DNA of 64,000 nucleotides from contig JBHGNT010000016.1 in the NCBI GenBank assembly GCA_043228905.1, positions 17,174,001-17,238,000 on the forward strand, written 5' to 3'. Shown here one piece after another: positions 30,301 through 61,842 of this stretch; the first letter of the stretch is position 1; every line of letters begins with the position of its first letter. The DNA comes from Azolla caroliniana. Taxonomy: Eukaryota > Plantae > Polypodiophyta. The translations under genes were made by a program, and so were the position numbers. The notes beneath the pieces were generated by a model. The model was given only the letters and a program-made list of their open reading frames with translations. It searched no databases and was not told the DNA's origin.

Positions 30301-31207
30301 CCCTTGCCCAACTAGGTATTGATGCATCATATATTCCCAAGATGCGTAGTTGTGTTTGTCCAACTTCTCTGTTGGAAGTGCGCTTCCCATTTGTGCATTC
30401 ATTTTTCTGATTTAGCTTGATTTGTATGATCCTGTTAACATGAGCCTCTTGTTGTGCAAAACTACAACGACGATTGCAGGTTTTAAAACAACGTCTCTAG
30501 TTGCTCACATTGTTTCAATGGTAGAGCTTAGTGAAGGATCTCTAACCCTCATGCTCTGATACCATGTAAAGAATCTAACTCTAGTAGAGTTGAGTATTCA
30601 GAAGTGTAGTATGTGTCTGTGTGAGAGAGAGAGTGAATGTATAAGCCCAGATGGATGTAGCTCAGTTGGTAAGGTTGCCCAATGGAGACCAGGTGGTCAT
30701 GGGTTAAACCTCTACATTCCACAGTGGCATCTAGTGAATTAAGAGATATATAAGAAATATATAATAGAGAGGTGAGGAAGTTGGGTTTCGAACCCACAAT
30801 GCAGTGCTTGTAGTGCTAACAATTTACCACTAGGGTAAGGTAATTACAATAAAAAAAAGGTATTACAAAGAATAACTAGAAAAATAAGAAAACACACAGT
30901 AGGGGGATGATAGCTTATGCACTTAAGAGAGCTATATTAATTAACTAAAGATCATCAATGAAGCATAATGGGCAAAGAGGGTTTTATATACAAGTCCTCA
31001 AGGGACTGCCATATTAAATGTGTTGGTGGAATCTAATCAAAATATCCACTTTAGTATGATTTTGTAATAAGAATATCTAATATTCTTTGACCCCATTAAC
31101 ACTTGACAACTACACGGATTACAATAAAGTGTGCTCACACACTTTTTCACACATCGTCCTTTTCTTCATAAGCACATGTTCACACAAGTTGAGCTTGATT
31201 CTCAACA
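27310..31207 (-). mobile_element. Ty1/Copia element, internally deleted, inserted into a Gypsy protease region
   Basis: 5' LTR 31207-30565, PBS TGGTATCAGAGC 30564-30553, gag from 30402, integrase C-terminus, RT (KARLVAKGY, QMDVKNAFL, LYGLKQAPRAW), RNase H (HARTKHVEMHYHYIRE). PPT lies next to 27543. The 3' LTR is truncated at about 27310. Confidence 0.9.
30652..30721 (+). ncRNA. tRNA-derived (tRNA-Ala-like) A/B-box module inside a Copia LTR; not a functional tRNA
   Basis: TGGATGTAGCTCAGTTGGTAAG...GGTCATGGGTTAAACCTCTACATTCCA. Has an A box, a degenerate B box and complementary ends (GGATGTAG/CTACATTCC). Confidence 0.6.
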
Positions 31208-34548: not shown

Positions 34549-35333
34549 TGTCGTGAAGTAGGAAAGGTTCACATTAAAAATCTACACTAAGATAAATACG
34601 TAACTAAAATAAAATAAATCTTGATAATGTTTTATAGAGATAATATTAACAACACACTATGATAATATTATACATTATATGTAGAGGCAAATAAAAGTAT
34701 ATATATTTTATTACATAAACAAGAGAGGACTTGAACCAATAACCCCCACCTTATGACTCTCAAACCTTACCATTTTCCCTATACTTGTAATATATATAAA
34801 ATTATATGTGTTGTCTTATTTGAAGGAGTATTGTATGGTTTAAACCATAAAACAATATAATGTACTGCATGTGCACCATATAGCATATCACTCTACATGT
34901 GTGACATATGGCCCACATGCAAAACCATCCCCTTCCTATAAAAGGAGAAGGGAGTATAATCACAAGGATATCAAGGAATCAATCAATCATATTGAATAGA
35001 CTTATTGTATGGAATCGAGCGAAATTATATTGTAAGAGATATCATTGTTACCCCGTACGAGATGTACGGAGAGTCAGTGTGATGAGCGAGGGTCGAATAT
35101 TATCATGATGATGTTGTATATGTGTAGGGAACATAAATGTAATTGTGAGTCGATATGTATGTGAACACATGCACACGTGTGTGCATGTGGAGGGATACGA
35201 TGAGGTGTGAGCGAGTGTCCAATATGAATGCTCTAGGGGGCTTACACCCCTTTGTATCTACCCCCTCTTGTATTATTTAACCCCTTTATGGGGAATGAAT
35301 GAATGAATAAAGCATTTCTCTCTATCTCTCTTT

Positions 35334-35372
<39 letters not shown>

Positions 35373-35588
35373 CCTCAACGTTGAACCCCCTTGGGAGGGG
35401 GGTGGAGCCATTCTAGGCACCACCCCCCACCCCGCAATGCTTCTCAATGCACATGATCTCTCTCGCCATCAATCCCATACCATTCACCATCTCCACCATT
35501 CCACAATGCTTATCTCCATCATCACACCCATCATTATAATCATGCTATCATAATCGTCATCCCTAACCCTAAAACGTACAACACCTTT

Positions 35589-35630
35589 TGGCGACCACTA
35601 AGGTGACCCCCCTTTGGAGACGGAGTCGAA
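35589..35630 (+). promoter_or_regulatory. PBS (tRNA-Arg-like), possibly bipartite; second copy at 43233
   Basis: TGGCGACCAC starts 5 nt after the LTR. GGAGTCGAA at 35622-35630 could pair with the tRNA T-arm. Confidence 0.65.
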
Positions 35631-37263
35631 GAATGATACACGACAATGTGAGGCATAGTGATGATGATATGTAAGAGATGTCCAAGTAATGATGGCGATA
35701 TGCAGCAAAAGGCGGAAGAAATCAGAAATGGAAGATTGACAAGATTGACTGCTGCACAATTCTACAACAAATTAATCTCTATATGTGAATGTTTTGTGTG
35801 GTTTGTTTTTGCCCTAAATGTCCGAGAAATGTTGGCCAAGATGTACAAAAACGGTGTCAATACATGAGAGGAAGTTGCAAAACAAGTTGCAAAAGGATGG
35901 CGTTACATGAGTGTGCGAGAATGGAAATGACAATGTGCAAATGTGCGGTTAGCAGCAACGTGTGCGTGTTCCAAGGAGACTGCGGAGGAAGACGCAATGT
36001 GTGGAGCGTGGGCCAGCAAGATGTGCGGGACCGAAATGAGACGTGTTCACAATTTCCAGTTTCCAGAGAAGCAACGCGGAAAAAGTTGGAACCAGAACAA
36101 GAGTTGGTTGGCACCGAAGCGGCCGTAATGGCCGGGCGGCCGTCAGAGTAGACAGAGCCGAAACAGCAATAGTGACGCCGAAAAGCGACGGACAGAGAGA
36201 CAACCGTCAGATATCAACGGATGACAACCGGATGACGACTGAACAGACCGGCCACGCGACTGCAGACCGGTCGGACAGGGTTGACGAAGATGAGAGAGGC
36301 TTCAGGAACGGTCATCACCAATCGACAACAGCCGGAGCGGCCGGAGGGCCGGACAAGGTCAAGGAAGCAAATAGGCTGCCAGGATGATGGACGGTGTCGA
36401 ACGACGACGAAACCGACAGAGGGAACGACGGCCAGATGGCCACCGTACGGAGAGCGGCTGAAGCATGGTGGATGAAGTACTGGCCGAAGAGCGAGCGACC
36501 GGTATGGCGGCCAGAATGCGGGACAAATGGCCGAAACGACGACGACGCTATACGGCAGAGGCCGGACAGTGGCGGCGAATGGCAACCCGAAACCCTACAC
36601 AACAGTCAAAGAGTGGCCGAAGAGCAGCGGCCAGATTGTGTGCAGAGCGACCAAGCGATGGACGAGGTTGGATTATGACGAACCGGCAGAGACGACAACA
36701 GAAACGGAAACGGGGCTGGATGGAAAGGCGCCGGACAAGAACGGACAACTCGAGTGAAGGACGAATGGCGACAGAAACACGACCGAACGGAGAATGATGA
36801 TGAAGACGGAAGATGACGAAACGGTTGCAGAGATGGAGAGACAACCAGAGTGGTAACGGTCGGCACGGTGACCAAGCAATGACCAGAACGGACCGGAAGA
36901 CAACGGACAACGGCCAAACAGAGGCCAAAAAGAGGGAGCCGTACAATCGATGGATGAACAACAGACGGGAAAACAGACAATGACGAAGACATTGATCAGC
37001 AATAGAGATGTAGACAAGGCGGGCGACGATTGAGCGGCGACGTAACCAGATGGTCAAGGGACGGAGAGAACCAGAGCGGCGTCCAGACAACAACGACAGT
37101 CGAACGACATCTGGATGGCAACCGAATAAAGTGGCCGGAGCAGCCTAAGTGTTGGCGGCCAGACAACCGATGGTCGTAAAGAATAGATAGATAGATAGAT
37201 AGATAGATTATATTATCGTCTTCGGAGATCAAATATGACCTATGAGACCAAAAATATTACATT

Positions 37264-40200
37264 TCACGTGATACGTGTGAAAGTGAGTAGTGACTCTCGA
37301 TGTTCAAGAACTTTACCAATGAATGTTGCAATCGAGAGTGCACATTGTGGTTGTGAGAGGAATTCATGCAAAGATTGGGCTCGATCGAAGAGATGTGGAA
37401 AGCATGGTCGAATATGATCAAAGGCAGAGCATTGTATCAAAGTGTGATACTCAGACTCGCGAACTTGTTTAGGGCAAAGTGTGCATAGCCGACCACTCTC
37501 ATCACTTGTACCCCAACGCCCTGTTTCACATCGCAATGCATGTGAGCTAAGTCGCATGGAAGCAATGGTTCGAATGGTAGATAACGGTATGGGCTCTAAC
37601 ATGTATGGATGTGTACGATTTCCCCTTTCCGCGAAGAATATGGTTTTGTAGTTAGGTGCAACATGTGTAGTATAATGTGTGAAGCATGAGCCTCCACATT
37701 TGTCCCATGTCATGATACATTGGCGTTGCAAAAATGCCTCATTTACAGAGGAATCTAATGATGCATCATGAAGCAAGTGTCTCGCATCCCATCTACCAAA
37801 CCATTTTTCTATATCTTGCATCCAACCGGAACACAAAATTTTGCTTTTATACGTCTTTTGGATCTTTTTGCTTGCTTCCCACGCAATTCTAGGAAGTCGA
37901 TGTGAGGGACTTTTTTGAACCTTAAGCATGTATTCAACAACCCTTTCCATGGCCATCATCTCAATGGGAAGCGATCCCGTCTCAAGGAGGAGGAGGGTGT
38001 AGGGCGTTTGTTTCTTAACTTGTAGAAACTTGGTAAGAAAATGCTTTTGGACATTTTCAAACTCTTTCCACGTAGACTTAGGGATGCTACCACCCCATAC
38101 TTCCACCCCATAGAGAAGAACTGGTGTCACCAAAGTGTCAAAAAGATATTTCTTGAGGACCCAACACTTAATATCTCCAAGATTGCATGTGTTCTCAAAT
38201 GCATAGTATGCTCGTTTGCCCGCCTCTAAGCGGCGTGTAGCACATTCATTCCATCTATGATTTGAAGGAACTTCAAGGCCAAGATATTTGAAGCTTTCCA
38301 CACATTCAAGTGGCTCATTGTTGTACATAATGCATGGTTTATCTCTTTTTTGGCTCTTCACAAGCATAATCTTTGTTTTAGAGCTATTGACACTTAATTT
38401 AGTATGCATGCAAAATTTTTCCAATGCCTTCATAAGCTTTTGTGCATCTCCTAAAGTATTTGCAAAAAGCACTACATCATCTGCATATAGCAAAAGCATA
38501 ATCACAACATTCCCAATGGCAACTTCTTCAACACATTCTTCCTTTGCAAACTTGGTAACCATTTCTTCCAATTCATCAATGCATAGACCAAATAGTGTTG
38601 GTGAGAGTGGGCATCCTTGCTTAACACCAATAGTGCTTTTGAAAAAATCTGAAAGTTTATCTCTCATGCGCACACAACATATAACCTTCTCATAAATTCG
38701 GGAAATTGCAAGCATATATTCACTTGGCACCTCAAGTTCTTCCATTCGCCTCCAAAGATGCTCACGAGGTACCATATCAAAAGCTTTCTTGAAGTCTACA
38801 AAGCAACAATATAAACCTTTACCTCTAAGGCGACTTTCCTCCATTAATACTCGAAGGGTGATAAGGTGATCAATGGTGCTATGGTGTTTCCGAAAGCCAG
38901 CTTGTCCATAAGCTCTCTTACCACTTTTTTAAGCCCATACACTTATCTTTGATTCCATTATACATCCAAATAGTTTTGCCATTAATGAGCCAACCATGAT
39001 GGTTCGATAGTTGTTTAGATTATTTATATCTCCACCTTTATGTAAAGGTTTGATCCAATTTGTAGTCCAATCGTACGGCATACCATGTTGCAATGCATCA
39101 TTAAACATATCTCTTATCCATATATGTGCTTCCTTTCCCGTCCATTTGAGCATTTCAGCCTTTATACATTGAAGATCGCTTGCCTTTCGAGAGGCCAATT
39201 TCTTAAGTCCTATGCATATATCTTCAATTGTAAAGAAGGAAGGCATATGTGAAAGAGAACCATAACACATCATCTTTCCGGCAAGAGATAACTCATATAA
39301 ATTCTTACAATGCATAGACAAGTCGTGAAGAGTTAAGTCACCATAACTCTCAACACGTTTTCCCTTTAGATTTCCCCAAAATTTAGCACATGCATGTGCT
39401 TTCTCTTATGTTTGGATAAATTGTTGAGTAACTTCCCATATTCTTCTCTTTCTTTGAATAAGCCTTTTATACTCATGCAAATGCTTTTGGTAATTCTCTT
39501 TATCCTTAACTACATCCAAAACCATAAGGCACTTTCGAGCTTCACGACATTCTTTATCAAACCATTTTTTCCTAAGTTTCTTGGTGCATTTCCAAGATGT
39601 GCGGTTGGTCGAAAAACATTTGTTTGTACATGAGAGAATGACTTTCTTGAAAGCTTCCCATTTGCATTCTAGTGTGGCACCATGTTGTATCTTTGTCATT
39701 TGTAACATATCCTCAACCATCTTGGAATACATGGGTGCTCGCTTAAGGTTCATGCTCAAGTGCGGTTGTTTATTATCTTCAATAGCCTTCTCACAATCAA
39801 ACCTATGCATACATTTGAGATCAATACATAAAGGCCTATGATCTGATTCCGGTGTCCATTCACCAAGTGAGAATTTATGTATACGATCCAAAATACCTTC
39901 GGAAAGTAGCACATAATCAATCACACTATTTCCGTTGTATTTTCTACATGTAAAACCATTAGTGTTGGGCCATAAGGAAATACCATTTGCAATAAGCAAT
40001 CCGGTACTATTGCACATTTGTAGGAGTAACTTCCCAAATTGGTCCGGATCTTTTTCATCGCTAGAAGAGCGGTTATACATTTGCATATCCTCTTGCATCC
40101 TTGAGATATGTGGCATGAAAGATTCTTGTGAATCAAGTTGGAAACTTCTTGTACGAGCATTCATTTCACCAAAGACAATAACTTCCCCTTTGGATTTGAA

Positions 40201-40638
40201 ATAGGCAATATCATCTTCTAGATTGGCAAACGGTTGATCTTTATCCAAACACGCATAAAAGTTAGAATCTTGATGAGGAATGTAACATCCAACAACAAAA
40301 GTGGGCAAATCATTAGGTGTTTCTATTTTGAGCCATATGTAGCATTTATTTTCATCATTTTTTATGATTGACACATATTTCTCTATTTCCTTCTTAATCA
40401 AACATGCCACCCCTCCTTGTCCTCTTCTTTGTCTTGGATTTTTCTTCCATATCAAAGAGTGTACATTATAGTTTCCTAAACCTTGAATCCTTTGAGTATC
40501 ATGCTCCCATGTTTCAACAAGAAGTGTGATATCCGAGTCATTGGTGAACTCCTCTATGCCAAATCCCGCACTCCATGGGTATCCATTGCAGTTCCAAAAG
40601 CATAGTCGTAAAAGGCGTGGGTTAGTCTCATAGATCAC
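37264..40638 (-). pseudogene. LINE ORF2 of copy A, interrupted by two in-frame stops (near 39406 and 38929)
   Basis: Colinear with ORF2 22875-26246. YADD is intact. Confidence 0.9.
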
Positions 40639-40644
40639 GTGTCC

Positions 40645-41514
40645 CTATTTGCCTACATTTCCATCTTTAGGCACATCCTTAACCTTGTTTTTCAATCTTT
40701 CTTCATATGCTTTACGACGAGCATTTTGTTGTGAGATAGTACGATCTTCACTCACAAAGCATTGTGTACCTTTGAGGTATACCCAACTATTTTCGAGTAT
40801 GATCCGCCGCTTTGTATCATCTGTCATTGTGCATACAATAGGCCTTTCTCCGGAGCGAGTAACACCATGTTTCCCAACTCGGTGTGCCCCATATACATTC
40901 ACATCTGACATCCCATAATGCATGCTAAAAAATTCACCAATGGCCTTTCCAAGGGATGCGGGTGTTTCCATACTCTCTTCTTTAATCCCACGGACGACAA
41001 TGTTCTTTGATCGTCGTTCGCGTTCTTTCAATTCTCGGACATCTATGCTTTCTATATTCTTCTCTTGATGCATCACCTGCATATTAGATGAGTTTGATAA
41101 CACATCCCCACCACATACATCGGCCCATGACTTCGTTGTACATACATTTTTCATCTCACTTACATCCCGCCTCATCGTGTCCAATTTTTCTTCTTTTAAT
41201 GCTTCCTTTAACTCAATCTTGTTAAGGCGCTCATTTGTTTCAAATGAAGCTCTTTTACATTCTTGAATCTCTTCTTGAAGTTTTGCAACCACTTGTTTAA
41301 GACTTTCATTCTCAATGACAACACTTTGGAGCTTAGTATTCTCTTTCATTAACATCCTAATCTCTTCACCTTGCTTGTTTATGGTTTCTTGAAGAGAAAT
41401 CAAGTGACTCATAAGCATTTTGTCCATTGCATTAGAATCGAGATTTGTTGGTGATCTCGGCTCATTATCAATCATACCCCCAAACTTTGCGGCGGTTTTA
41501 CGAGTATTTGCCAT
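40645..41514 (-). CDS. LINE ORF1 (coiled coil + RRM/CTD-like, 289 aa)
   Basis: Coiled-coil stretch, then RSKNIVVRGIKE, AHRVGK, RPIVCTM and LKGTQCFVSEDRT. Ends 6 nt before the ORF2 ATG. Confidence 0.85.
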   Translation of the reverse strand: MANTRKTAAKFGGMIDNEPRSPTNLDSNAMDKMLMSHLISLQETINKQGEEIRMLMKENTKLQSVVIENESLKQVVAKLQEEIQECKRASFETNERLNKIELKEALKEEKLDTMRRDVSEMKNVCTTKSWADVCGGDVLSNSSNMQVMHQEKNIESIDVRELKERERRSKNIVVRGIKEESMETPASLGKAIGEFFSMHYGMSDVNVYGAHRVGKHGVTRSGERPIVCTMTDDTKRRIILENSWVYLKGTQCFVSEDRTISQQNARRKAYEERLKNKVKDVPKDGNVGK

Positions 41515-41777
41515 TGTAGGGACAAACCGTATGGGAAAAGAGAGACAAAGAGGGAAGGAGAGAGAATATACCTTTCACTCGATTTAGGGCTTCAAAATCT
41601 ACCTTCCGTTTGAGGAATCGTGGGGCAAAGATGGCTGCGGATGAAAATGCTCATAACTTCTCGCCACGTTAACGGAATTCAGTAAATGAACATTCTTTAG
41701 AAAGCTCTCTCAAAGAGCTTTCCAACGAGCTATAGAACGTAGAAAACGATGGCCAGAGTGAACTTACAGAGAGCTTT

Positions 41778-41816
<39 letters not shown>

Positions 41817-42641
41817 GGACAGAGATGGCAGACCATAGAATGGCCGGACAGGGCCGACAGAGATGGCAATGACGCCAAACGATGGCAGAACAGGAACGGA
41901 AAGCGGCGGCTGGACAGCCACGTCCGAGCATCGGAGGACACCGATGGCAACGACGACGGACCCAGAGACAGAAATAGAAAAAAAAAAAAAAAACAGAGAC
42001 CGAGACCGAGACGGAGATGAACAGAGAAGGCCGTACAAACACACAACGACACACAAAAGCAGAGCGTGACAGCCACGGACAATGGACATAGCATAGCGGT
42101 GGTGAAAGAAGGAAGAAAAACGAGAAGAGAGGATGAAGATAAAAAGAAGAGAAAGATGAAACAGAATCAGAAAAGAAGAAGAAGAAACAGACAACGATAA
42201 GAGAGAGAAAACGCAAACAGAAAACAAGAATAAGAAGAAACAAGAGAGGAAGAAGAAAAAGCAAGAAAGAAAACACAAAAAGAGAGGGGGGGGGCATGTA
42301 ACAAATATTGAAACCTTGAGGGTACTGAATGAAATTGTCAAAATTCGAGGGTATGTAATAAAAATTTTAAAACTTGAGGGCACCGACGAAATTGTAAAAA
42401 CTCATCCACCTAGAGAAATGGATGTGATCAACAACGACAACTCACACAAAATTAAAGGAAGATACACATACACACAACATTTTTGGACCCATGACGAAGT
42501 TCGTAAGTCGACAGAACGAGAATGTTCGTGTCGCGGAAGATTTGCTGACCAACAAAGATGGTCGAGTCAAGCACTCCGATCGAGGGAGTCGATCGTTGAA
42601 AGGACCGATGGAAGTTCCGGTCGAAGAAATATCATCATCAA

Positions 42642-42686
42642 GGCATGTGGGATCGACGTGCAAGGCACTCTCCCACGGGCGTGCCA
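42642..42686 (+). promoter_or_regulatory. tRNA 3'-half mimic ending in CCA (a minus-strand PBS) at the position of the PPT; second copy 45664-45708
   Basis: GGCATGTGGGATCGAC-GTGCAAGGCAC-TCTCCCACGGGCGTGCCA ends 5 nt before the LTR. Its reverse complement begins TGGCACGCCCGTGGGA. Confidence 0.7.
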
Positions 42687-42979
42687 TATTGTGTTACCCC
42701 GTACGAGATGTACGGAGAGTCAGTGTGATGAGCGAGGGTCGAATATTATCATGATGATGTTGTATATGTGTAGGGAACATAAATGCAATTGTGAGTCGAT
42801 ATGTATGTGAACACATGCACACGTGTGTGCATGTGGAGGGATACGATGAGGTGTGAGTGAGTGTCCAATATGAATGCTCTAGGGGGCTTACACCCCTTTG
42901 TATCTACCCCCTCTTGTATTATTTAACCCCTTTATGGGGAATGAATGAATGAATAAATCATTTCTCTCTATCTCTCTTT

Positions 42980-43016
<37 letters not shown>

Positions 43017-46001
43017 CCTCAACGTTGAACCCCCTTGGGAGGGAGGTGGAGCCATTCTAGGCACCACCCCCCACCCCGCAATGCTTCTCAATGCACATGA
43101 TCTCTCTCGCCACCAATCCCATACCATTCACCATCTCCACCATTCCACAATGCTTATCTCCATCATCACACCCATCATTATAATCATGCTATCATAATCG
43201 TCATCCCTAACCCTAAAACGTACAACACCTTTTGGCGACCACTAAGGCGACCCCCCTTTGGAGACGGAGTCGAAGAATGATACACGACAATGTGAGGCAT
43301 AGTGATGATGATATGTAAGAGATGTCCAAGTAATGATGGCGATATGCAGCAAAAGGCGGAAGAAATCAGAAATGGAAGATTGACAAGATTGACTGCTGCA
43401 CAATTCTACAACAAATTAATCTCTATATGTGAATGTTTTGTGTGGTTTGTTTTTGCCCTAAATGTCCGAGAAATGTTGGCCAAGATGTACAAAAACGGTG
43501 TCAATACATGAGAGGAAGTTGCAAAACAAGTTGCAAAAGGATGGCGTTACATGAGTGTGCGAGAATGGAAATGACAATGTGCAAATGTGCGGTTAGCAGC
43601 AACGTGTGCGTGTTCCAAGGAGACTGCGGAGGAAGACGCAATGTGTGGAGCGTGGGCCAGCAAGATGTGCGGGACCGAAATGAGACGTGTTCACAATTTC
43701 CAGTTTCCAGAGAAGCAACGCGGAAAAAGTTGGAACCAGAACAAGAGTTGGTTGGCACCGAAGCGGCCGTAATGGCCGGGCGGCCGTCAGAGTAGACAGA
43801 GCCGAAACAGCAATAGTGACGCCGAAAAGCGACGGACAGAGAGACAACCGTCAGATATCAACGGCTGACAACCGGATGACGACTGAACAAACCGGCCACG
43901 CGACTGCAGACCGGTCGGACAGGGTTGACGAAGATGAGAGAGGCTTCAGGAACGGTCATCACCAATCGACAACAGCCGGAGCGGCCGGAGGGCCGGACAA
44001 GGTCAGGGAAGCAAATAGGCTGCCAGGATGATGGACGGTGTCGGACGACGACGAAACCGACAGAGGGAACGACAGCCAGATGGCCACCGTACGGAGAGCG
44101 GCTGAAGCATGGTGGATGAAGTACTGGCCGAAGAGCGAGCGACCGGTATGGCGGCCAGAATGCGGGACAAATGGCCGAAACGACGACGACGCTATACGGC
44201 AGAGGCCGGACAGTGGCGGCGAATGGCAACCCGAAACCCTACACAACAGTCAAAGAGTGGCCGAAGAGCAGCGGCCAGATTGTGTGCAGAGCGACCAAGC
44301 GATGGACGAGGTTGGATTATGACGAACCGGCAGAGACGACAACAGAAACGGAAACGGGGCTGGATGGAAAGGCGCCGGACAAGAACGGACAACTCGAGTG
44401 AAGGACGAATGGCGACAGAAACACGACCGAACGGAGAATGATGATGAAGACGGAAGATGACGAAACGGTTGCAGAGATGGAGAGACAACCAGAGTGGTAA
44501 CGGTCGGCACGGTGACCAAGCAATGACCAGAACGGACCGGAAGACAACGGACAACGGCCAAACAGAGGCCAAAAAGAGGGAGCCGTACAATCGATGGATG
44601 AACAACAGACGGGAAAACAGACAATGACGAAGACATTGATCAGCAATAGAGATGTAGACAAGGCGGGCGACGATTGAGCGGCGACGTAACCAGATGGTCA
44701 AGGGACGGAGAGAACCAGAGCGGCGTCCAGACAACAACGACAGTCGAACGACATCTGGATGGCAACTGAATAAAGTGGCCGGAGCAGCCTAAGTGTTGGC
44801 GGCCAGACAACCGATGGTCGTAAAGAATAGAGACAGCTGGACAGAGATGGCAGACCATAGAATGGCCGGACAGGGCCGACAGAGATGGCAATGACGCCAA
44901 ACGATGGCAGAACAGGAACGGAAAGCGGCGGCTGGACAGCCACGTCCGAGCATCGGAGGACACCGATGGCAACGGCGACGGACCCAGAGACAGAAATAGA
45001 AAAAAAAAAAAAAAACAGAGACCGAGACCGAGACGGAGATGAACAGAGAAGGCCGTACAAACACACAACGACACACAAAAGCAGAGCGTGACAGCCACGG
45101 ACAATGGACATAGCATAGCGGTGGTGAAAGAAGGAAGAAAAACGAGAAGAGAGGATGAAGATAAAAAGAAGAGAAAGATGAAACAGAATCAGAAAAGAAG
45201 AAGAAGAAACAGACAACGATAAGAGAGAGAAAACGCAAACAGAAAACAAGAATAAGAAGAAACAAGAGAGGAAGAAGAAAAAGCAAGAAAGAAAACACAA
45301 AAAGAGAGGGGGGGGGCATGTAACAAATATTGAAACCCTGAGGGTACTGAATGAAATTGTCAAAATTCGAGGGTATGTAATAAAAATTTTAAAACTTGAG
45401 GGCACCGACGAAATTGTAAAAACTCATCCACCTAGAGAAATGGATGTGATCAACAACGACAACTCACACAAAATTAAAGGAAGATACACATACACACAAC
45501 ATTTTTGGACCCATGACGAAGTTCGTAAGTCGACAGAACGAGAATGTTCGTGTCGCGGAAGATTTGCTGACCAACAAAGATGGTCGAGTCAAGCACTCCG
45601 ATCGAGGGAGTCGATCGTTGAAAGGACCGATGGAAGTTCCGGTCGAAGAAATATCATCATCAAGGCATGTGGGATCGACGTGCAAGGCACTCTCCCACGG
45701 GCGTGCCATATTGTGTTACCCCGTACGAGATGTACGGAGAGTCAGTGTGATGAGCGAGGGTCGAATATTATCATGATGATGTTGTATATGTGTAGGGAAC
45801 ATAAATGCAATTGTGAGTCGATATGTATGTGAACACATGCACACGTGTGTGCATGTGGAGGGATACGATGAGGTGTGAGTGAGTGTCCAATATGAATGCT
45901 CTAGGGGGCTTACACCCCTTTGTATCTACCCCCTCTTGTATTATTTAACCCCTTTATGGGGAATGAATGAATGAATAAATCATTTCTCTCTATCTCTCTT
46001 T

Positions 46002-46036
<35 letters not shown>

Positions 46037-46682
46037 CCTCAACGTTGAACCCCCTTGGGAGGGAGGTGGAGCCATTCTAGGCACCACCCCCCACCCCGCA
46101 ATGCTTCTCAATGCACATGATCTCTCTCGCCACCAATCCCATACCATTCACCATCTCCACCATTCCACAATGCTTATCTCCATCATCACACCCATCATTA
46201 TAATCATGCTATCATAATCGTCATCCCTAACCCTAAAACGTACAACAATCATAATAGAGAAAGAGGGAGAGAAGGTAAAAGTATATACAATCTTTATAAG
46301 ACAAGAGAAGAACTAGCTTGGTGGTGGCGGTGCTGAACTCACAACGAAAAGGCGGAGGTTCAAGTGTTATCCTCATCGAAAGATAGAAGGGAAGATTGTG
46401 GTGTACTATCAAGTAAGAGAAGAGCGACTACCTTGTGAGATAAAGTTCGACGGTTCAACGACACTTGCAACCATTTTGTAACTCTTTCATGAAATAATTA
46501 TAAATTTCTTACATTCCCTCAATTATCATTTTACATTCTATCTTGTCACATCTTGATGATCACTATTTACTCTATCTCTACTCTTTCGTTTCTTCTGTCC
46601 AAAATCCAAGTGATTCCTTCCTCACTTTCACGTTATCTTTTGTCTACACACGCTATGCTTTTGGGCGAGCCACGCCACGACA

Positions 46683-49091: not shown

Positions 49092-52000
49092 TGTTACGGG
49101 CATGACCATATAATATCCCGTGGTGAGAATTGTCGTAGTATTCTATACACGTGGATAAGTGTGAGGGTTAAACAAAGAGTCTAAAGAAGGGGAGGATTAC
49201 TTTTAATCCTCGGGATTGAGACAACCCATGAGGCCAAGTGTGAACATGGCTGGGGGCCTTGAGAATTACTATAAATAAGAGGCCTAGCTACCCTCATTTC
49301 ATCATGCATTGACTACGTCGAGACTCTGTCCGTGAGTGGAACGACTCTTGTAGCAAGCGCGCTATCATCCAGGTACGACTCGACGCCAAGGCGGTGGTAT
49401 GGGACGCCGATTGAGGCTCGAGTCCGTCTCGATCCCTTCGCTCGGGGGTGGTCGGGTGGATCGGCACCCTTCTTTCTCTCTTTTCTCTCTATTCTTTCTA
49501 GATCTATCATTGATATATCCTTATTTTATGCTTACTTTAGTACCTAATCTCTAATATTTGGTATCAGAGCCTATGTACTAACGTTTCTTTTGGTTTTCTT
49601 TTTGTCTTCGCGTGGGATGGCGATTGATCGTTGTGCGGTCGCCTTCATGCAGACAAGGATTAGCGAAAGAACTTCGGTAAATTTTCCTTAATTTTTTATC
49701 TAATTTTTCTTCTCCCTTCTATACATGTGTATACTTAATATGTAGTTTTTTTTTCATATATTCAATGATGTTGACGTGGTATTTAATTGGTTATCTTAAA
49801 CGTTTACATATGTCCACGAGGTCAATACCTCGTTTGACATATAAATCATATGTGATGAGTGTCGTATGCGTACGAGGTTACTACCTCAATTGCGTATTAC
49901 GTTCACGAACATATGTTACGTTCGCGTACGAGGTCAATACCTCGATTCGTTCGAAATGATATGCGTTGGATTTACTATGCGTAAGAGGTCAATATCTCAA
50001 TTGCGAATTACGCTTAACCTTATTTTCGGATGTTTCGTGTGCGTAGAGGTATATGCCTCGATTACGTATCCCGAATACATCATTGTTGGCTATATAAAAA
50101 AAACGATTCATTTAGTATACGCATATGTGGTCACTTATATACGTCTCTGATCGTATATATGTGATATATTGACATATGTGTATATTTTAGATTACGTGAT
50201 TCATATCAAATGTTTTCCTAATTGGGGAGAGGATTTTGGTGGCCGTCCTCACATTTTTGTGAGAATGGCGTTGTCACCATCCCTTTTATCAACAATTTTT
50301 ATTGTTGCAATTCCCGTTGGTCACTTTGATCTTTCGTTACGTAACGAACCTCGTATAGCCAAAATGATGTTGAATACGTCGGGCTTGATCCACATCAAGT
50401 AGGGTCGCTCTAATGACACACGTATCCAACATCTCCCCTCGTTACATGGATACGATGCCACCATGAGCTCGTTCTTACGAGTGCCATTCGTAATGACGTG
50501 ACCATGTGATGGGCCACATGAGCCTACGAAGACACAAGGGCTCATTCGGCTTGACCATTAGGTTACACTTTGGCATATGCCATTGTACTTACGAGGCTTG
50601 AGGGTAGGTAGCGTACAACCATAGTGGGTAATAAATGAGGGAGAAATAAGGCCACTTGACCTATATGTTTCTTTTAAAAAAAACATATAGGGGCAAATGC
50701 CTCGCATATCTCGAATACGCCTCAAACATTAAATATTCAAGACGCGCAATCTACTTGGTTGGCTCAAGTGTTTAATGTATTTGTCCTCGAGGTCTCGAGT
50801 TCAAATATGACCAACACCATACAACATCGTTGATACATATGACTATAATACATGTTTAGACTTTAGGTCTAAGTGCACTTCGGGGTCCTCGTAATAGGAC
50901 TTAAAGAGCCGAAACCACATATGTGGGCACAGAAACATAGTTATTGTTAACATTTTTTTTCGTGTATAAACTATTCATGACGCGAACATACATGGTTGAG
51001 CCTCGGGGAGCCGCCATGAAAAAAATCGATATAGAGATCAGGGAAAGGCATTCATTTGTCACCCCCATGGTTTTTAAAACACCTCTGTGTTACCATAGTA
51101 ACCTGATCTTGAACCTCATCTCATACGTCTAGAGGGGTATTGACGTGAGATCATGATATCGATTAATGTTTGCCCATGATATGTTTACACCACGACAAGA
51201 TGTTATGACTATTTGTCTGACCTTATCTTATTTCTTTGCCAGAAATAATCATTCAATGGCTCAGAATAACGACCCGATGCCCTCCGCTCAAGCGGAAAGA
51301 CCTCAAGGAAATCCTCCTGGGACAATGTCCATTGAGGCGTATATTTTACAAGTACAACATTTCCTTAGTTCAACCGCGCAGCAGTTGACCGAATTTCGGC
51401 AATCTCAAAGTGCTCTCGAGGCACGAGTCATTAGTCTCCAAAATGAGATTAATAGACCTGATGAGCGTCAGGGTGAACCATCATTTGTCGTAAAGCCATT
51501 TACGGGAGATAAAAAGGAAAGAACCGAAGAAGCAATCTGCACGTGGCTGGCCCGATGGGAGTCTCATTTTGAGCTCTATCCCACGCCAGATAGTACGAAG
51601 ATTGCATATGTCGGCCGAGAACTAGGGGGTAAGGCCGCCGCTTGGTGGCGTGGGCTCCGAACTTTGGGGAGATTGCCCGAGACCTGGACAGACTTTGTCA
51701 CAGTTTTCAAGGGTCAATTTCTACAACCTCCCTCTCGAACCGAGGCAGCACAAGCTTTAATGAACCTCTCTAGCAGGAAGTTTTCCTCGCTAGAAGACTA
51801 TGTCCACCATGCTAGAACCCAAATCCAAAAATCGAGTCTAGAAGGGGACAATTGGTTAATAGCTTGTTTTGTCAATGGCATTCCCAATTCAGACTATCAC
51901 TGGATAGTGCACGATAAGGATCCAAAATCCTTCGAAGAGGCCGTTGAGATAGTTCTTCGCTATCAACGCACTTCGAAGAAGGACCATAACAAACCCAACG

Positions 52001-55000
52001 AAGCGCCCGGGACTAAGCAGTCGCAATTCGTTGGGAAACGCAAGACACCCAACGAATTCATGGATCGCGATTATAAGCGACAACATCCTTTTTGCGTATT
52101 CTGCAAAAAGAAGGGTCATACAAAAGAGCAATGTCGTAAGCTCCAACGAAAAGAGTACGACGCCAAACCTAAAGCTACAGACCATAAAGGTCAGATTCCT
52201 AATGTCCTTCAGGTCTATACACATCATTTGAGTAATTGTCAATGTTCTTTCCCTCATTATGTATTGGGTCCCAATGATTTACTACGTGCAAACGGGTATA
52301 TCAATGGATCTCCCGTACAATTTTTATTTGATTCGGGAAGCTCACACAATTTTGTGAATGATCGTTTGGTACAGATATGGGGAATCCAACCCACCGTAAG
52401 TGATCACACCTACACGGTGCACTTGGCTGATGGAAGAGTACAACACATCAACGGGGCGATTCATTCTTTAGGAATTTCTATTGATACCTATATAGAGGAA
52501 GTAGACTTCCATGTAATGAATCTTAGTACCACCGATGTAATACTGGGTTATCCCTGGTTTTATAATAAAAGCTCTTCTTTATTTATTGATTGGGTTCGCC
52601 ATTCCATTTCTTTTGTACTCAACGATTGTACGCATTTTATTCAATGTGTAAAAAAACAATCCCTCTCGATTGTTTCCTCGTGTCCATCAATATCCGAGTT
52701 GTCTTGTTCTACGTTATTTTATTGTGTACTTGATCCGGACATTCACGTTTACAATATCGATAATGTCTCGGGTCAATTAACATATTTTGAACAAAAACAA
52801 CTTGATGAAATCGTAAACGATTTTCGTGATGTTTTTCCGAGTGAACTACCCGATGGTTTACCTCCTAAACGTAATATAGACCATCGTATAGATATTGTAC
52901 CTGGCATTGCACCCATTAGTATACCTCCGTATCGCCTAAGTCGATCTGAAGAGGATGAGGTAGCTAAGCAACTTAAGGACTATTTACGAATGGGTTATAT
53001 ACGTTATAGTAAATCTCCATGGGGTGCACCAGTTCTCTTGGTTAAAAAGAAAGAGGGCACATGGCGTATGTGTATTAATTACCGACGCTTGAATAAAGTG
53101 ACGATCAAGAATTCGTACCCATTGCCCCGGGCTGACGATCTAATTGACCGTCTCCAGGGAGCTCGGTATTTTACGAAACTTGATCTCCGTACTGGCTACC
53201 ATCAAATACGAATAAGTGAGGACGATGTTCCTAAAACAGCATTTCGTACGCGCTACGGCCATTATGAGTTTTTGGTTATGCCTTTTGGTTTGACCAATGC
53301 TCCGGCTACATTTCAACAAGAAATGAATGACATTTTCCGAGAACAACTTGGAAAATTTGTCGTTATCTTCTTAGATGATATTTTAGTTTATAGCCGTACA
53401 TTACAAGAACATGCTAGACATGTCCGCTTTGTTTTACAAATATTGCGTGACAAACAATTTTACGCGAAGATCTCAAAATGTGAGTTCTTCAAGAAATCAA
53501 TTACTTATCTTGGACATCTCATAACCGAACGAGGAGTTGAAATTGATCCTTCTCGCATCAAGAAAATCAAGCTTTGGCCCACTCTTCGGAATATTCGAGA
53601 AGTTCGATCATTCCTTGGTTTTGTCGGATTTTTGCGAAAATCTCTTCGTAATTACTCACAATTGACGACGCCGTTTACTAATCTTCTAAAAGGTCAAACG
53701 CGTAAGTCTACAAAACCTATTGTGTGGAATGCTACACTAGACCTCACCTTTAAGGAACTCAAGGACTTGGTATGCAAGGCTCCTTCACTTCTTTTACCCG
53801 ATCCTTCAAAACCTTTTGAGGTTGAAACCGACGCAAGCGATTATGCTATAGGTGCTGTCTTGTATCAAGATGGTAAACCAATAGCATTCGAGAGTAAGAA
53901 ACTTGATTCTGCTCAATGTCGGTATACCGTTCAAGAAAAGGAATTATTTGCGGTTATACATGCGCTCAAAACATGGCGCCATTATCTTTATGGAAATCGC
54001 TTTGTGGTAACTACGGACCACGAGTCCTTGAAATATTTTTGTGACCAACAAGACCTGAAAGGTCGTAAGGCACGATGGGCTGATCTCATCCAGGACTTTG
54101 ATTTTTCCATACGATACCGTAAAGGTTCCATGAATACTGTCGCTGATGCACTAAGTCGCATCCGTGAAGTTAACATGCTTAGCTTCACTGAAATAACATC
54201 AGATCTTTATGATCACCTTCGAGGAAAGTATCTTGATGACAATTATTTTGCAAAATACTGGGCAAGAGTCGAGTCTGGAATAGACACCACCACACCCTCG
54301 AAGGAATACTTCCACATTGCTAACGGTCTGCTCTACCGTAATGGGAAGGTTTGTGTTCCAGATTTACCTGAGGTCAAAAAGAGAATTCTTTTTGAATGCC
54401 ATGATGCACCCTCAGCAGGGCACCCTGGAATACATCGTACACTCGTTCTCATCTCCACTCAATTTTATTGGCCTAAGATGCGTCCTGACATACATAGCTA
54501 TGTGACTAAATGTCACCAATGTCAGGTTAACAAAGCCGAGCGACTTAAAGCCGCAGGACTTTTACATCCCTTGGACATTCCCAATAATAAGTGGGAAAGT
54601 ATATCCATGGATTTTATTGTTAGCCTTCCTCGCACCCAAAAAGGTCATGATGCCATATGGGTTGTGGTTGACAGACTAACTAAAATGGCCAGATTTATTG
54701 CTACTAAAACCACGGTAACAGCTCCTGAATTGGCTTACCAATTCATTGATGAGTTATTTCGTTTTTACGGGTTACCGATGGATATCGTGAGTGACCGAGA
54801 TCCGAAGTTTACTAGTGACTTCTGGACGCAAGTCTTTAAGAAGTTAGAAACTACGTTGAGCATGAGCTCCACGGATCATCCTCAATCCGATGGACAGACA
54901 GAACGAGTAAATCAAATTATTGAGGACATGCTTCGAGCATACGTTGGTGCAAAACCAACAAAATGGGAACGTTACCTCCCAATTTTGGAGTTTGCTTATA

Positions 55001-56140
55001 ACAACTCCAAGCATACATCGACGGGATATAGTCCTTTTATGTTGATGTATGGATTTCAGCCACGAGCCCCGATTGATGTTAATATACATCATGATGAGTT
55101 GCGAAGTACGCAAAACTTTCTTCGGGATATGCAAGATATGTTGCATATTGCACGGGATAATATAAAAACAGCTCAAGATAGGGCGCGTTTTTATGCCGAT
55201 CATCACAGGCAACCTCGTGTATTCAGCCCTGGACAGAAGGTATTTTTACGTGTACCTCACAATTCTAAGACATTGTCTACGGGTAAGTGCGCTAAGTTAG
55301 CCCCACGGTTTTGTGGACCTTTTACAGTCCTCAAACGCATTGGATCATCAGCCTATCGTCTCGCTCTTCCCGATGGTGTTGGAATCCATCCAGTCTTTCA
55401 TGTAAGTCGTCTAAAAGAACTTCTAGGTTCTGGCGACAATACAGTTACAACTGAAACTCTGGTTACTTCTGAAGATTTATCTTCTAAACCACATGTACCA
55501 GAAAGAATTCTCGATGTTAAAACAAAAAAATTACGTACTAAGGAAATCCGAGAATTTAAAATAAAATGGATGGATAAATCAATCAAAGATGCCACATGGG
55601 AACGCGAAACGACTCTAACAACTAACTTCCCTAACTTTCCATTGCAAGAGTGCAATGTTTTAAAGAGGGGGAGTATGTTACGGGCATGACCATATAATAT
55701 CCCGTGGTGAGAATTGTCGTAGTATTCTATACACGTGGATAAGTGTGAGGGTTAAACAAAGAGTCTAAAGAAGGGGAGGATTACTTTTAATCCTCGGGAT
55801 TGAGACAACCCATGAGGCCAAGTGTGAACATGGCTGGGGGCCTTGAGAATTACTATAAATAAGAGGCCTAGCTACCCTCATTTCATCATGCATTGACTAC
55901 GTCGAGACTCTGTCCGTGAGTGGAACGACTCTTGTAGCAAGCGCGCTATCATCCAGGTACGACTCGACGCCAAGGCGGTGGTATGGGACGCCGATTGAGG
56001 CTCGAGTCCGTCTCGATCCCTTCGCTCGGGGGTGGTCGGGTGGATCGGCACCCTTCTTTCTCTCTTTTCTCTCTATTCTTTCTAGATCTATCATTGATAT
56101 ATCCTTATTTTATGCTTACTTTAGTACCTAATCTCTAATA
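49092..56140 (+). mobile_element. Intact Ty3/Gypsy chromovirus, 7049 bp
   Basis: 465-bp LTRs at 49092-49556 and 55676-56140, with no differences seen by eye. TSD TTTCC, PBS TGGTATCAGAGCC 49559-49571, PPT AAAGAGGGGGAG. Confidence 0.96.
51166..55689 (+). CDS. Gag-Pol polyprotein (gag, zinc knuckle, protease, RT, RNase H, integrase, chromodomain), 1507 aa
   Basis: [83 protein letters not shown]. The true start may be the Met at 51256. Confidence 0.95.
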
Positions 56141-56195
56141 TTTCCACTATGGTAGAGCAAACCGTTTGTAATGTGAAAGGTCGCGTTCGAGGGTA

Positions 56196-56931
56196 GGGTT
56201 CACCAAATGTGTCGTGCCTTTCGGCGTCAAATCATTGCGTGAGTCGGGTGGGAACTGTTGGGGTTTTGGACTAGGCGGAGGATAATTTTTTAGACAGATA
56301 GGAATGTTAATAGATTGTAAGAAAGAGATATAGAAACCTCATGAATCCCATGAGTGTATTGTATTAGATTAATCAACCCTTAGAATCCTAATAGGAAATT
56401 AGAATATACTAGAAAAGATAGATTGAAAATCGTGAATCACACGAATATAATCAATTAGATCAATATTTAGAAATATTAATAAAACCCAAGAATCAACACC
56501 CATTACAATTTGCTCCTCACCCTTATATAATGATGGGAGAGACTAAGTATATAGCAATCCATGTTTTTTCTAACTATATAGACTTCATGCTTTTTCTTCT
56601 AATAATAGTGTTCATGCACGTGAGATGTGCATGAATAGCTATTTCGATCATGCGTTTTCTTTTAACTAAAGTTTTATGCACTCTACGGTAAAAGTAGCTT
56701 TTCCTAAAAAATATACGAGAAATAACCTTTGTATGTGGGATATCTACTTTTCTAACACTTATGATGTGTTAGTATAATGGTAAAGCTATAAATTGTAAAC
56801 ATGGAGGCATAGGGTTTGAATCTTACCCTATGCATGTAACATATAATTTAACATTTTCTTCGGTTTCTTCATACTTATCCAATTAGTTATTTTATACGTT
56901 TTTCACGTAGTGTACGAATTACACTACGACA
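56196..56931 (-). mobile_element. Gypsy LTR (56931-56210) with partial tRNA-Trp PBS
   Basis: TGTCGT...ACGACA termini, TGGTGAACCC on the minus strand at 56205-56196. Homologous to LTR 60700-61488. Confidence 0.8.
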
Positions 56932-57089
56932 ATGTCATCTAAACCAGATTCGGCTTTTGTCCAGTATTTTGAGAAATAACGGTCATCAAGGTATTTCCCT
57001 CTAAGGTGATCCAAAAGATCAAATTTTATTTCCGTGGAGCTAAGCATGTCAACTTCTTTAATGCCTTTATAGTCACAACATGAGTAGTA

Positions 57090-57765: not shown

Positions 57766-59643
57766 ACAGGAAATAGTTGTACCAGATGATGCTCGAGGAG
57801 AGGAACTCGTTGTAGACAAGGAACTGGATAAAGCATATTCAACCGGACAAGAAGAGCAATGGGAAAAAGAGATAGGAAGCCTAAAGGAAGACATCGCCAG
57901 GCAAGTAGAAATCATGGAAAAAATAAAACAATTGTGACGAGTAGCCGAAGACGAGAAACGAAAGATGGAGGAAGGACTCTATAGATTGCAGGAAAAGGGG
58001 TCGACATAGCAAGAAACGGAGAAAGAAAATGAAACAAATGGCCAAAGTAGAGATCAGAAGACTAAAGGGGGAGCTTCGACAACAGAAAGAATGGGATGAT
58101 CATTTGGGGGCACAAGCCAAATGATGCTTCAAGGACAAGTAGGAAGATTTTGATAAACTCTATTGGGATCACAAGGAGTTGGAAAAGGAGTTTGACCGGT
58201 AACGCGAGAGGCTAAATGAAGCAAAGGTAGAAGTGAAAGAGAAGGAGGAAGCCCAAAGAGTGGAAGAAAAGGTCTTCGAAGAAGCAAAAGAGAAGTTGCG
58301 GGACGAGGCAAGAATGGAAAAGACTTGGGATATTGGACACGCACAACCAACTATTGGAATGATCATGGGTACTGATGAAAAAGGTACAAACCACATATTA
58401 GACCCAACTAGAGAATTATGAGGTCCAAGCGTAAGCAACAGCAAATCAGATTAAACGGCTGAAGAAGGAGAAGTAGGCCACTGAAGAAAGGATCGAGATG
58501 GGCATCAAAAGAATCTGAATTATTGTGAAAGGTCAGCGAGACTGGATGAGACAAATACCGGAGGGTGGTTCGTCTACGATGTTAAGGGAATGTCACAGAC
58601 ATGACAATAGTCATGTCAAGATTCGATCTCTTCACCTCTTGTATATAGTCAAGTGTTATGTTCTAACCAACACATTCAAATACATGGTTACATTATTCAT
58701 ATTTTAGTAGATTATTAGTAGATTATCTATTCCAATTTCTAGGAGTTTTTAGAAGCTTCTACATGAAAATGGGTTGGCGCATGGAACTACATGTAGATAC
58801 CACACACATGTATAAATACTTGTAACTTTCTTGATCCCTTTCAAAGGATTCAACACCAGTCATTGACACATCAATATAGTATTCTCGTTTTGTCCCATCA
58901 TGTCTCCTTGATCGTCATCTTTGTCTTCATTCTCTTGCTCGTTTCTAAGGTCTTAAGTTCCTTGCATCGTCACTCCCAACTTCCTGAGTTTCTAGCCCCG
59001 TCACTTCTAGTTCGTAGCCCCATCATCCGTGCTCCGTCCCAGTCCGTGCTGCTTGGTGTGTCCATGATAGGGAATGGTCAAAGTAGGCAGCCGAACTCCA
59101 TGTATTCCGTTTTGACACGGAGAATAGGGAGAAAACTAGGGACCACTTTTATAAAATGGACGAAGAACGTATCCTAACCATCCAGGAGGAGTTATCAAAT
59201 GCTTTTTATGCTATGGCCCAAGTACAAATAGATGAAATCCGACGAGTGATGGAGGAGTTTGAAGACGATCAACTATAGCTAGCGTTGGAGCGGGAAGCCT
59301 ATAAGAGGGAGAGAATTTGGAGGGAATAGCAATAGCAGGGAGACAAACCACTGAAGAAAATAAATCTTAGTGAGGAGGACCAACTGGTGGTTGGGACGGA
59401 ACTAACACTCATGGAGGACCAACAACCGGGTGAGCAAGCGCCTTTGCAACAAAGGGGTGTAGATGAAGAATTACAACATTTCCTAGATGAAGAACAACTA
59501 ACTGGCGACAATTCACTACAACAACAGATGGAAGCAGGATATTTTGGACAATCTCAAGGAAAGCTAGAAGGCATGTGAACTGGAGATGATGATCAAGGCA
59601 AGTGGGATCGACGTGCAAGGCACTGTGCCACAGGCGTGCCATG
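57766..59643 (+). mobile_element. Decayed internal region of a relative of the three-LTR element, with coiled-coil ORF remnants
   Basis: E/K/Q-rich broken ORFs, ending in the same tRNA-mimic motif (59597-59641) followed by an LTR-like start TGTTGCCC at 59644. Confidence 0.55.
58591..59069 (+). mobile_element. Solo LTR, 479 bp
   Basis: TGTCA...TGATA termini, TSD GGGAA (58586-58590 and 59070-59074), TATAAAT. The start resembles the LTR at 1467. Confidence 0.8.
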
Positions 59644-59721
59644 TGTTGCCCAGAAAAAAGTACGAACCGAAGGTGTGAACAGGAGCTCGAGTACCCGATA
59701 TTAGATAATTAGGAATATTAT

Positions 59722-59837
59722 TGTTGAGAATCAACCTCAACATAGAGCAACGTGTGAACACACCTTTTGAGAATCTATGTGCACACACATAACTCACATC
59801 TCTTCCGATTCACAAGAATCATATCCGATTCTTTACA
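59722..59837 (+). mobile_element. Miniature Copia-type solo LTR, 116 bp
   Basis: Both family termini are present (TGTTGAGAATCAA...GATTCTTTACA). Flanks ATTAT/AGTAT differ by one base. Confidence 0.7.
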
Positions 59838-60699
59838 AGTATATTAAGTAGTGGCGGATCCAGATGGATGTATCGATCTCGAGCCGCACCATTTTGTATC
59901 TATATTGGTCCTTATAGGCACTGTTTTATATCAAAACCGGCTACCTATAAAAGGATTCCAGATTGTATAATAGATATGTGCAAGCAAGTAATAGAATTGT
60001 GATATTTCATTGATTGCCATCTTGTGTACTTAACCGTTCTATTTTATGTGTGTAGTGATATAGTGTGATACGTATATGTAATCCAAATTGAGAGTTTGTC
60101 TAGACGGATTGTAACCATACCTCCGACCACACCTTTGGATAGTATTCTGGAATGGGATACGTTGTATTTGCGACTAAGACAGATTCGAACCCAGGAACAA
60201 CCGCCATCCATGCCTCATTCAACTAGATGACCTTCGGGAAGACAAGTAGGATCTGTCCCTTTCATCGTTGTAGTCATCTAAAGTAGTATCAGGTTGGAAA
60301 ACAACAAATAGTATGTGATTGACACATTGAAATCGAGAATCAGAAGAGAGTGGCTCAAGAAGAGCCGAACATTTTGCAAATTTTTGAGGACTTCTAGCTG
60401 GCAATTTTTGTGGGTCCAACCGTGCAAGGCACTGTCGCACATGCGTGACATGTGATGGCCGGGTAGGACGGCCAAAGTGTGAAAGGGACCGTAGGGACAA
60501 GCACAAGTCGTAACTAATATTGATGGGGCCGGACAGATGGCAGATATTAGGGGAGCTGACCATAAGTGGGGACGAGTTGGACAAACAAAAGTTTGAAGCT
60601 TTTAGCAAAGCTATAGGCTTATTGCCTTGTGGGGGCTGATCTGTCACTCCCTGTATGTGTTCACATCATTCGCTCCATGGGGTTTTGTTACACTTACGT

Positions 60700-61842
60700 T
60701 GTCGTAGTGTATTTAGTGTAATACACTACGTGAAAAACGTATATAGTACTAGATTCGGTAAATGTGAAGAAATAGAAAAATATATATATTACATGCATAG
60801 GGCAAGATTCGAACCTTATACCTCCATGTTAATAATATGAAGCTTACCATTACACCAACACATCATGAGTGTTTATGTAGATATCCCACATAAAAAGGTT
60901 TTCCAAGCATATTTTCTAGAAAAAGCTTTAGTTAGAAGAAAAAGGCATGATAAAAAAAAGCTACACATGCACATTTAGCATGCATAAACACTATAGTCAA
61001 TAAAAAACGCATGAGGTTAAAAAAAGCATGATCACTTTTAAAAAAAACATGGTAGGGAAAGCATATAGTCTATAGATAGATAAAGCATGGCGTCCATAGT
61101 TAGAGAAAAAGCATGTATTGTTAAGACTCTCTCATCACTATATAAGGATGTGGAGCACAATGTCATAAGGGGAAATAAATAAATAAATAAATAATGGAGT
61201 GATTATTAGGGTCTAAATATTGATTAATATAATACTCGTGGGATTCACAAGCTTTTTGATCTCTCTTTTCCAATCTATTCCTATCGATTCCAATCGAATC
61301 CAAAGTATAATTAGGGTTAAATATTCATAAAACTAAAAAACTGTATTCGTGGGATTCATGAATTTCTATCTCTCTTTCTTATAATCTATTTATATTCTTA
61401 TTAGCCTTAAAACTCAGCTCCTCTTCGTCCAAAACCCCAGTGGTTCCCACCTGACTCATGAAATGATCTGGCGCCGAAAGGCACGACACAGTTGGTGAAC
61501 CCGACGTGAAAACGGGCGGCAAGGAGATGGAGAATCAACAAGAGGTGATGAACACGATGATGATGATGTTCGAGCAAATGCTACAAGAACAACGACCAAT
61601 GTCGGAGATCACGGGGCCAGTAAAGCGGCTAGTACAAAGAAACAGACAATTCAACGGAAAGGATGCGTCACGGTATCTATGTGACTACAAGTCAGAGATG
61701 ATGCGATGTGGGATACCAAAAGGATTGCAAGTGATATCCTTCAATCGGGTGGTCACGGATGAATTGCAAGAGAGCATCCACAAGATACGCCAACAAAACC
61801 CGACGTGGTTGTCCTTCGAGGAAGCTATATTGGAAGTGTTAT
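60700..61842 (+). mobile_element. Gypsy 5' LTR (60700-61488), tRNA-Trp PBS (61493-61510) and start of gag
   Basis: TGTCGT...ACGACA, TGGTGAACCCGACGTGAA. Gag FNGKDASRYLCDYKSEM is homologous to FSGKDATSYLASYRAEM in the 19589 gag. Confidence 0.88.

Follow-up and report, generated by a model that had tools for sequence, protein, structure and literature searches.

A polypurine tract (PPT) is regarded as near-universal in the replication of LTR retrotransposons and retroviruses. In yeast Ty3 the minus strand is primed by a tRNA at a primer-binding site (PBS) that is bipartite, and the plus strand by an RNA that is rich in purines, resists RNase H and lies immediately upstream of U3, the boundary of U3 being set by the 3' end of the plus-strand primer (PMC5371799; the latter point is also textbook knowledge). 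Among the plant gypsy lineages treated in PMC6317226, Athila has PBSs of the tRNA-Asp/Asn/Ala type, TatI-III, Ogre and Retand possess an additional RNase H (aRH), and Phygy and Selgy are short, have a 4-bp TSD and are devoid of an extra ORF; the PPT side of these lineages is not surveyed in the available text of that paper. Tat Z1/Z2 are basal aRH-less branches from seed-free plants (PMC13468544), and none of the terms PPT, polypurine, PBS and primer binding is used in the main text of that source. The Helenus and Cassandra TRIMs are LTR elements with captured tRNA- or 5S-derived sequence, in which the tRNA-like part is described as a Pol III promoter inside the LTR while the PPT is kept, Helenus being under about 1 kb in size (PMC10886601).

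The elements described here, found in a 64-kb stretch of DNA (the window, at its full length) and in metagenomic relatives, carry a cassette resembling a tRNA 3' end directly before the 3' LTR. This cassette is real and conserved, and it takes the place of the PPT in a known class of element. The carrier shares with Ty3 the tRNA-primed minus strand, the LTRs and the gag-PR-RT-RH-INT order; its TG...CA LTR ends, its TSD and a PBS past the 5' LTR are likewise those of a Ty3/gypsy element, and the one feature of that group that it lacks is a PPT directly before the 3' LTR. On the sense RNA the Ty3 PBS is complementary to the tRNA, whereas the cassette is tRNA-identical. It also differs from Helenus and Cassandra, as the cassette lies outside the TSD-defined LTR, has no 5' half, ends in CCA and replaces the PPT, and as the carriers are 3-kb and coding elements.

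The carrier belongs to a gypsy lineage of seed-free plants outside the chromoviruses and is consistent with a grade that lacks aRH and is Athila-like or basal Tat; mosses and liverworts come into question as hosts beside ferns and lycophytes. A single gag-pol ORF, the lack of a chromodomain match and a non-Met PBS are shared with the Athila/Tat/Phygy/Selgy grade, and the absence of both aRH and chromodomain, the 5-bp TSD and the 3' extra ORF with Athila (PMC6317226 and its supplementary file 3). Having no aRH it differs from TatI-III, Ogre and Retand, and its 5-bp TSD and 1100-aa extra ORF set it apart from Phygy and Selgy; compared by description, it resembles Tat Z1/Z2 in lacking an aRH and in occurring in seed-free plants. 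Its PBS is presumably of the Arg type, unlike those of Phygy and Selgy and the Asp/Asn/Ala type of Athila.

The nearest full polyprotein (P0002, known from the protein only) contains gag, protease, RT, RNase H and integrase in gag-PR-RT-RH-INT order and is 71–84% identical to the integrase, gag and RH pieces of motif-bearing loci. Judged by eye, the acidic residues of its RNase H are present; Pfam gave neither a chromodomain nor an aRH match for P0002, no solo aRH ORF outside the polyprotein was seen in L027, L033 and L059, and no relatives of P0002 were found in viral contigs. Among named single-copy RT-RH sequences, those closest to it come from Riccia, Adiantum and Marchantia (49–53% identity). 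In a quick tree of 60 rows, from which P0106 was left out as a short hit, P0002 grouped at an open fork with rows from liverworts and ferns (support 92) and was separate from the aRH-less rows of seed plants (support 98), which we infer to be Athila. An extra ORF is conserved in these elements between the integrase and the 3' LTR (L027:71-3397, L082, L079, L085). Intact copies are about 1100 aa long, partly coiled-coil-like and acidic; the four full-length copies had no match in Pfam.

Plant retroelements form a nest in the window. Near-identical LINE copies (endonuclease and RT, minus strand) occupy 20341-26384 and 37185-41814, one of the copies being nested within another and one lying in the first unit of the three-LTR element described below. 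There is a 148-bp tandem array at 7006-7909, and a tRNA-like short repeat at 2071-2136 and 30624-30695, by eye a possible SINE, in which ARAGORN called no tRNA gene. Another LTR family, which we assume is possibly of the Phygy type, is represented by two inverted copies at 60696-61505 and 56193-56935; its PBS near 61493 is a different one that begins with TGG, and a gag-like frame follows this PBS. The features belonging to the cassette-carrying family are collected in Table 1.

Table 1. Cassettes and the elements carrying them in the 64-kb window
Feature	Coordinates	Strand	Evidence and remarks
Non-autonomous three-LTR tandem element	35046..46247	+	TG...CA ends; 5-bp TSD ATCAT
LTR1 of tandem element	35046..35583	+	
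Ordinary 5' PBS TGGCGACCAC	35589..35598	+	5 nt past LTR1
Cassette, tandem element	42647..42686	+	5 nt upstream of middle LTR
LTR2 (middle LTR) of tandem element	42692..43227	+	
Ordinary PBS TGGCGACCAC	43233..43242	+	5 nt past middle LTR
Cassette, tandem element	45669..45708	+	5 nt upstream of 3' LTR
LTR3 (3' LTR) of tandem element	45714..46247	+	
Broken 3' extra ORF, element of 59602 cassette	57770..59585	+	Stop codons, insertion; strand is that of the motif
tRNA-3'-end cassette	59602..59641	+	PPT position; string and core match, tRNA alignment
3' LTR of decayed family member	59644..60307	+	Start 2 nt past CCA; right end (60307) is a guess
Fragment of another subfamily: extra-ORF end, cassette, LTR start at 60453	60362..60514	+	76% over 153 nt to L066
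Decayed cassette copy	60410..60450	+	Ends GCGTGACA; string and core match, tRNA alignment

The two motif strings reported in the initial annotation are indeed present at 59597-59641 and 60409-60450, followed by TG-TGTTGCCC and TG-TGATGG, respectively. The 13-nt core CGTGCAAGGCACT has four exact matches in the window, all on the + strand (42657, 45679, 59612 and 60421), and one further match with 2 mismatches on the minus strand (3516); by chance, 0.88 matches with up to 2 mismatches would be expected, and five were reached in 0 of 100 shuffles. Because 42657 and 45679 belong to two units of one tandem element, the four matches represent three independent copies. The core had been described as invariant, which holds for all four window copies but not family-wide, as its first C varies (A in the largest subfamily). 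Similarly, the flanks had been described as diverged, and pairwise blastn found no alignment among the three independent copies, whether of upstream flanks with each other or of downstream flanks with each other, but the flanks of the copies at 59-60 kb do align to L057, L048 and L066.

The LTR at 59644 aligns with the LTRs of L057, L048 and L081, and contains what by eye is a short copia-LTR-like insert near 59724-59838. Upstream of the 59602 cassette, 58050-58526 matches L057 (blastn) and 59069-59383 is a remnant of the extra ORF (tblastn to that of L027, E 9e-20). The 60410 copy has decayed to ACA instead of CCA and to TGATGG instead of TGTTGG. Both of these copies are older than those of the three-LTR tandem element, which is the cleanest carrier. 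The unit of the latter is 3022 nt, with a LINE inserted in the first unit, and its LTRs are 99–100% identical (0 mismatches between LTR2 and LTR3, LTR1 differing at 5 of 536 sites); an element of this cassette-carrying build is thereby shown to have integrated recently and precisely. Read along the + strand, LTR1 and LTR2 are each followed by 5 nt and TGGCGACCAC, and the CCA of each cassette by 5 nt and then LTR2 or LTR3. As the element has no genes and looks symmetrical, its orientation was taken from relatives.

A metagenome scan returned 76 stretches corresponding to 75 loci, two of which (L046 and L089) had neither CCA nor an LTR start and were dropped as chance matches; counts therefore refer to 73 loci with one match each, all from one accession series and probably from a single data set. 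Several LTR subfamilies are represented. The CCA end is present in 71 of the 73 loci and the 3' strand of the T-stem, CCCAC, in 66, neither being demanded by the search pattern. An LTR-type start follows the CCA after 2 nt in 41 loci, after 4 nt in 8 and after 5 nt in 21, and is irregular in 3. These starts were called by word match; the window's TSD supports the calls, as do second LTR copies in L030, L044 and L081, where LTR homology starts 3–5 nt past the CCA. The motif lies 2–5 nt before LTR starts in the metagenome loci and in the window alike, a position for which the initial annotation had proposed a test. In four runs, labelled as four organisms, contigs stack up over the motif and drop off to either side, where differing flanks form loose ends; this depth is not equivalent to copy number. 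The earlier proposal is supported in that the motif is a cis-element conserved across a wide family of LTR retrotransposons, and from its conservation against unalignable flanks we infer that it is probably under selection. An upstream GGCA able to pair with the tail is found in only 54 of the 73 loci and so is not universal. Scanning viral contigs for the motif gave 19 loci, none with a CCA tail.

The orientation of the motif follows from gene order. In L027, L033, L057 and L059, the integrase C-terminus, the extra ORF and the motif succeed one another on one strand, with the extra ORF ending about 11 nt upstream of the motif, and in L033, L064 and L084 the motif is followed on one strand by the LTR and gag. 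Of the 73 loci, 31 (the query locus L027 among them) show extra-ORF homology upstream of the motif and on its strand, and one shows it upstream on the opposite strand. In L033, a single run leads from an LTR through PBS and gag to a deletion, and on to the end of the extra ORF, a second motif and the start of an LTR, although its two LTRs are only 75% alike, so that it could be an assembly mosaic. With integrase, extra ORF, PBS and gag all on its own strand, the motif is at the 3' end of the element, in the position of the PPT. The initial annotation had itself named the converse, that the motif might simply be the sole, ordinary 5' PBS of minus-oriented elements, and some pol or gag matches do lie on the opposite strand (L035, L041, L042, L090, L093). 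Those in L035 and L093 are, however, only 25–28% identical and stem from other lineages, those in L042 and L090 lie beyond the LTR, and the fragment in L041 abuts the PBS of the element itself, which is on the motif strand; gene order and the separate same-strand PBS exclude such a case, L033 refutes it, and we attach hardly any probability to it. The fragment in L041 (first 106 nt, in motif orientation) is an antisense piece of the family's RT, joined exactly at the PBS of the non-coding element via a short shared word, and represents either a template switch or a misassembly.

No PPT was detected directly before the 3' LTR in any of the 73 loci (20 nt examined). In these 20 nt, offset by 5 nt in 19 loci, the longest purine run has a median of 3 and a maximum of 4, the same measure giving 12, 7, 5, 7 and 7 for five other LTR elements of the window. 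A chromovirus-type gypsy element at 49092-56143, with identical 468-nt repeats, an open polyprotein frame of 1510 aa and a normal PPT, is a very recent insertion.

What stands in this position corresponds to tRNA positions 49-58, an insert of 13-14 nt, positions 59-65 and, with one base (66) missing, positions 67-76 including the CCA. The insert after position 58 holds a 4-bp hairpin, so that the parts are, in order, the 5' strand of the T-stem, a remnant of the T-loop, the inserted hairpin, the 3' strand of the T-stem, the 3' strand of the acceptor and the CCA. This anatomy is derived from alignment to two ARAGORN-called tRNA-Arg(TCT) genes of viral contigs, with position numbering of our own; as the pattern that fetched these viral tRNAs was built from the motif, what it establishes is a tRNA-like anatomy rather than the host isoacceptor. 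Rfam found no tRNA match in L027 1-200 (a single chance hit, E 4.2), and ARAGORN called only two tRNA-Pro genes and no host tRNA-Arg in the 75 metagenome loci.

Two types of ordinary PBS occur in the family, the commoner TGGCGACCAC, in plants what we take to be an Arg-type site, and TGGCACGCCC, which matches the tRNA-Arg(TCT) stand-ins from viral contigs. A PBS was recognised in 11 of the 44 loci with at least 350 nt downstream, and spacers vary at both ends, from 2–5 nt before U3 and from 2–6 nt after U5. TGGCGACCAC has been given as a PBS, its Arg/Trp label being disputed (PMC4724089), and an iPBS primer ends in the same nine letters as the motif (PMC7798630), indicating that such an end is in use at plant PBSs. 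The last 10 nt of the motif have their exact reverse complement in the ordinary 5' PBS of L031, L034 and L055, so the family likely primes from such a site already. Together with L041 these loci form a non-coding subfamily in which the 5' PBS repeats 10 nt of the 3' cassette perfectly in inverted orientation, and where one tRNA could, by its sequence, serve both ends.

We favour, with a probability of roughly 55%, a process where the copy of the tRNA 3' end located 2–5 nt before the 3' LTR would act as a second PBS, on minus-strand DNA, at which a host tRNA primes the plus strand. It is because the 3' end of the plus-strand primer sets the U3 boundary that the occurrence of this boundary 2–5 nt past a tRNA-type CCA is relevant. 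Once RNase H had cleared the RNA, the exposed minus strand would consist of the LTR end, the spacer, TGGCACGCCC and the hairpin, the latter leaving 10 nt exposed, equal in length to the ordinary PBS of the family. The 3' end of a tRNA of the Arg(UCU) type would anneal to these 10 nt, RT would extend from its CCA across the spacer into U3, and the tRNA would later be removed by RNase H, as at the other end. In predicted folds of the minus-strand DNA, the 10 nt of the tail are unpaired beside the hairpin in 4 of 5 copies. In more general terms, we consider it likely that a recently active gypsy lineage of seed-free plants gave up PPT priming and starts both strands from tRNA-type primers, via a captured tRNA 3' end with a hairpin inserted exactly after position 58, and that its RT must extend a tRNA on DNA without destroying it.

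Several points count against priming by a host tRNA, among them the origin of all 73 loci in one accession series and the fold and covariation results given below. A tRNA annealed to DNA is itself a substrate of RNase H; speculatively, the hairpin may limit the length of the RNA/DNA hybrid so far that RNase H does not destroy the primer before it is extended. In addition, 15 of 71 loci have purine runs of at least 9 nt in the 60 nt upstream of the cassette, where the extra ORF has its acidic end. A cryptic upstream run of this kind might prime the plus strand while the cassette had another role, such as packaging, 5'-3' pairing with the PBS, for which the tail is suited in L031, L034 and L055, RNA processing, or that of a Pol III box B as in Helenus. 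We regard this as improbable, as the U3 boundary, set by the end of the plus-strand primer, lies 2–5 nt past the CCA, as the tail mismatches the commoner PBS TGGCGACCAC, and as the box-B-like loop is eroded in 44 of the 73 loci.

The same erosion, with a T-loop of TTCGA in only 29 of 73 loci while the stem strands are kept, would suit a primer provided by the element itself. Its own RNA, forming a T-arm-like hairpin with a 10-nt tail on the minus strand, may survive RNase H, be cut at or just after the CCA and prime the plus strand, and could be viewed as a PPT that is structured instead of purine-rich and imitates a tRNA primer complex. A second tRNA would then be unnecessary, and the largest subfamily is predicted to form one RNA hairpin (-16.8 kcal/mol). 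Fold strength was not clearly better than that of shuffles, with z ranging from -1.2 to +0.5 as DNA and from -1.9 to +0.7 as RNA, and covariation, which would argue for such a structure, was absent: no compensatory change in either helix was seen among 15 rows, in which the pattern had fixed three of the four strands. Moreover, the RNA would first be copied into a long hybrid opposing its refolding, and pairing with a real tRNA accounts more simply for the exact retention of CCA and for the use of the same end as a PBS in L031, L034 and L055. Self-priming is thus an unlikely, though not a far-fetched, explanation.

The opposite strand shows exactly the geometry of a PBS (CA, 2–5 nt, TGG...), and RT primes well from a tRNA on RNA templates. 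Both facts would accommodate a PBS carried by a transcript that runs antisense from the 3' LTR, on which plus-strand strong-stop DNA would be made before annealing to the minus strand, a scheme that requires a hypothetical antisense RNA packaged with the genome and that we find quite improbable.

In the literature searched (without subscription journals and Repbase entries), we found no prior description of a tRNA-tail cassette that replaces the PPT, and priming of the plus strand by a host tRNA, as read from these sequences, is likely to be a new route for LTR retrotransposons. Where annotation tools rely on PBS and PPT to orient elements, they would turn members of this family the wrong way round or discard them, the non-coding ones being most affected, as they look symmetrical. 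The family offers a natural system for studying how a plus-strand primer is selected and spared by RT and RNase H, and the existence of an abundant, recently transposing family devoid of a PPT suggests that plus-strand priming can be rewired.
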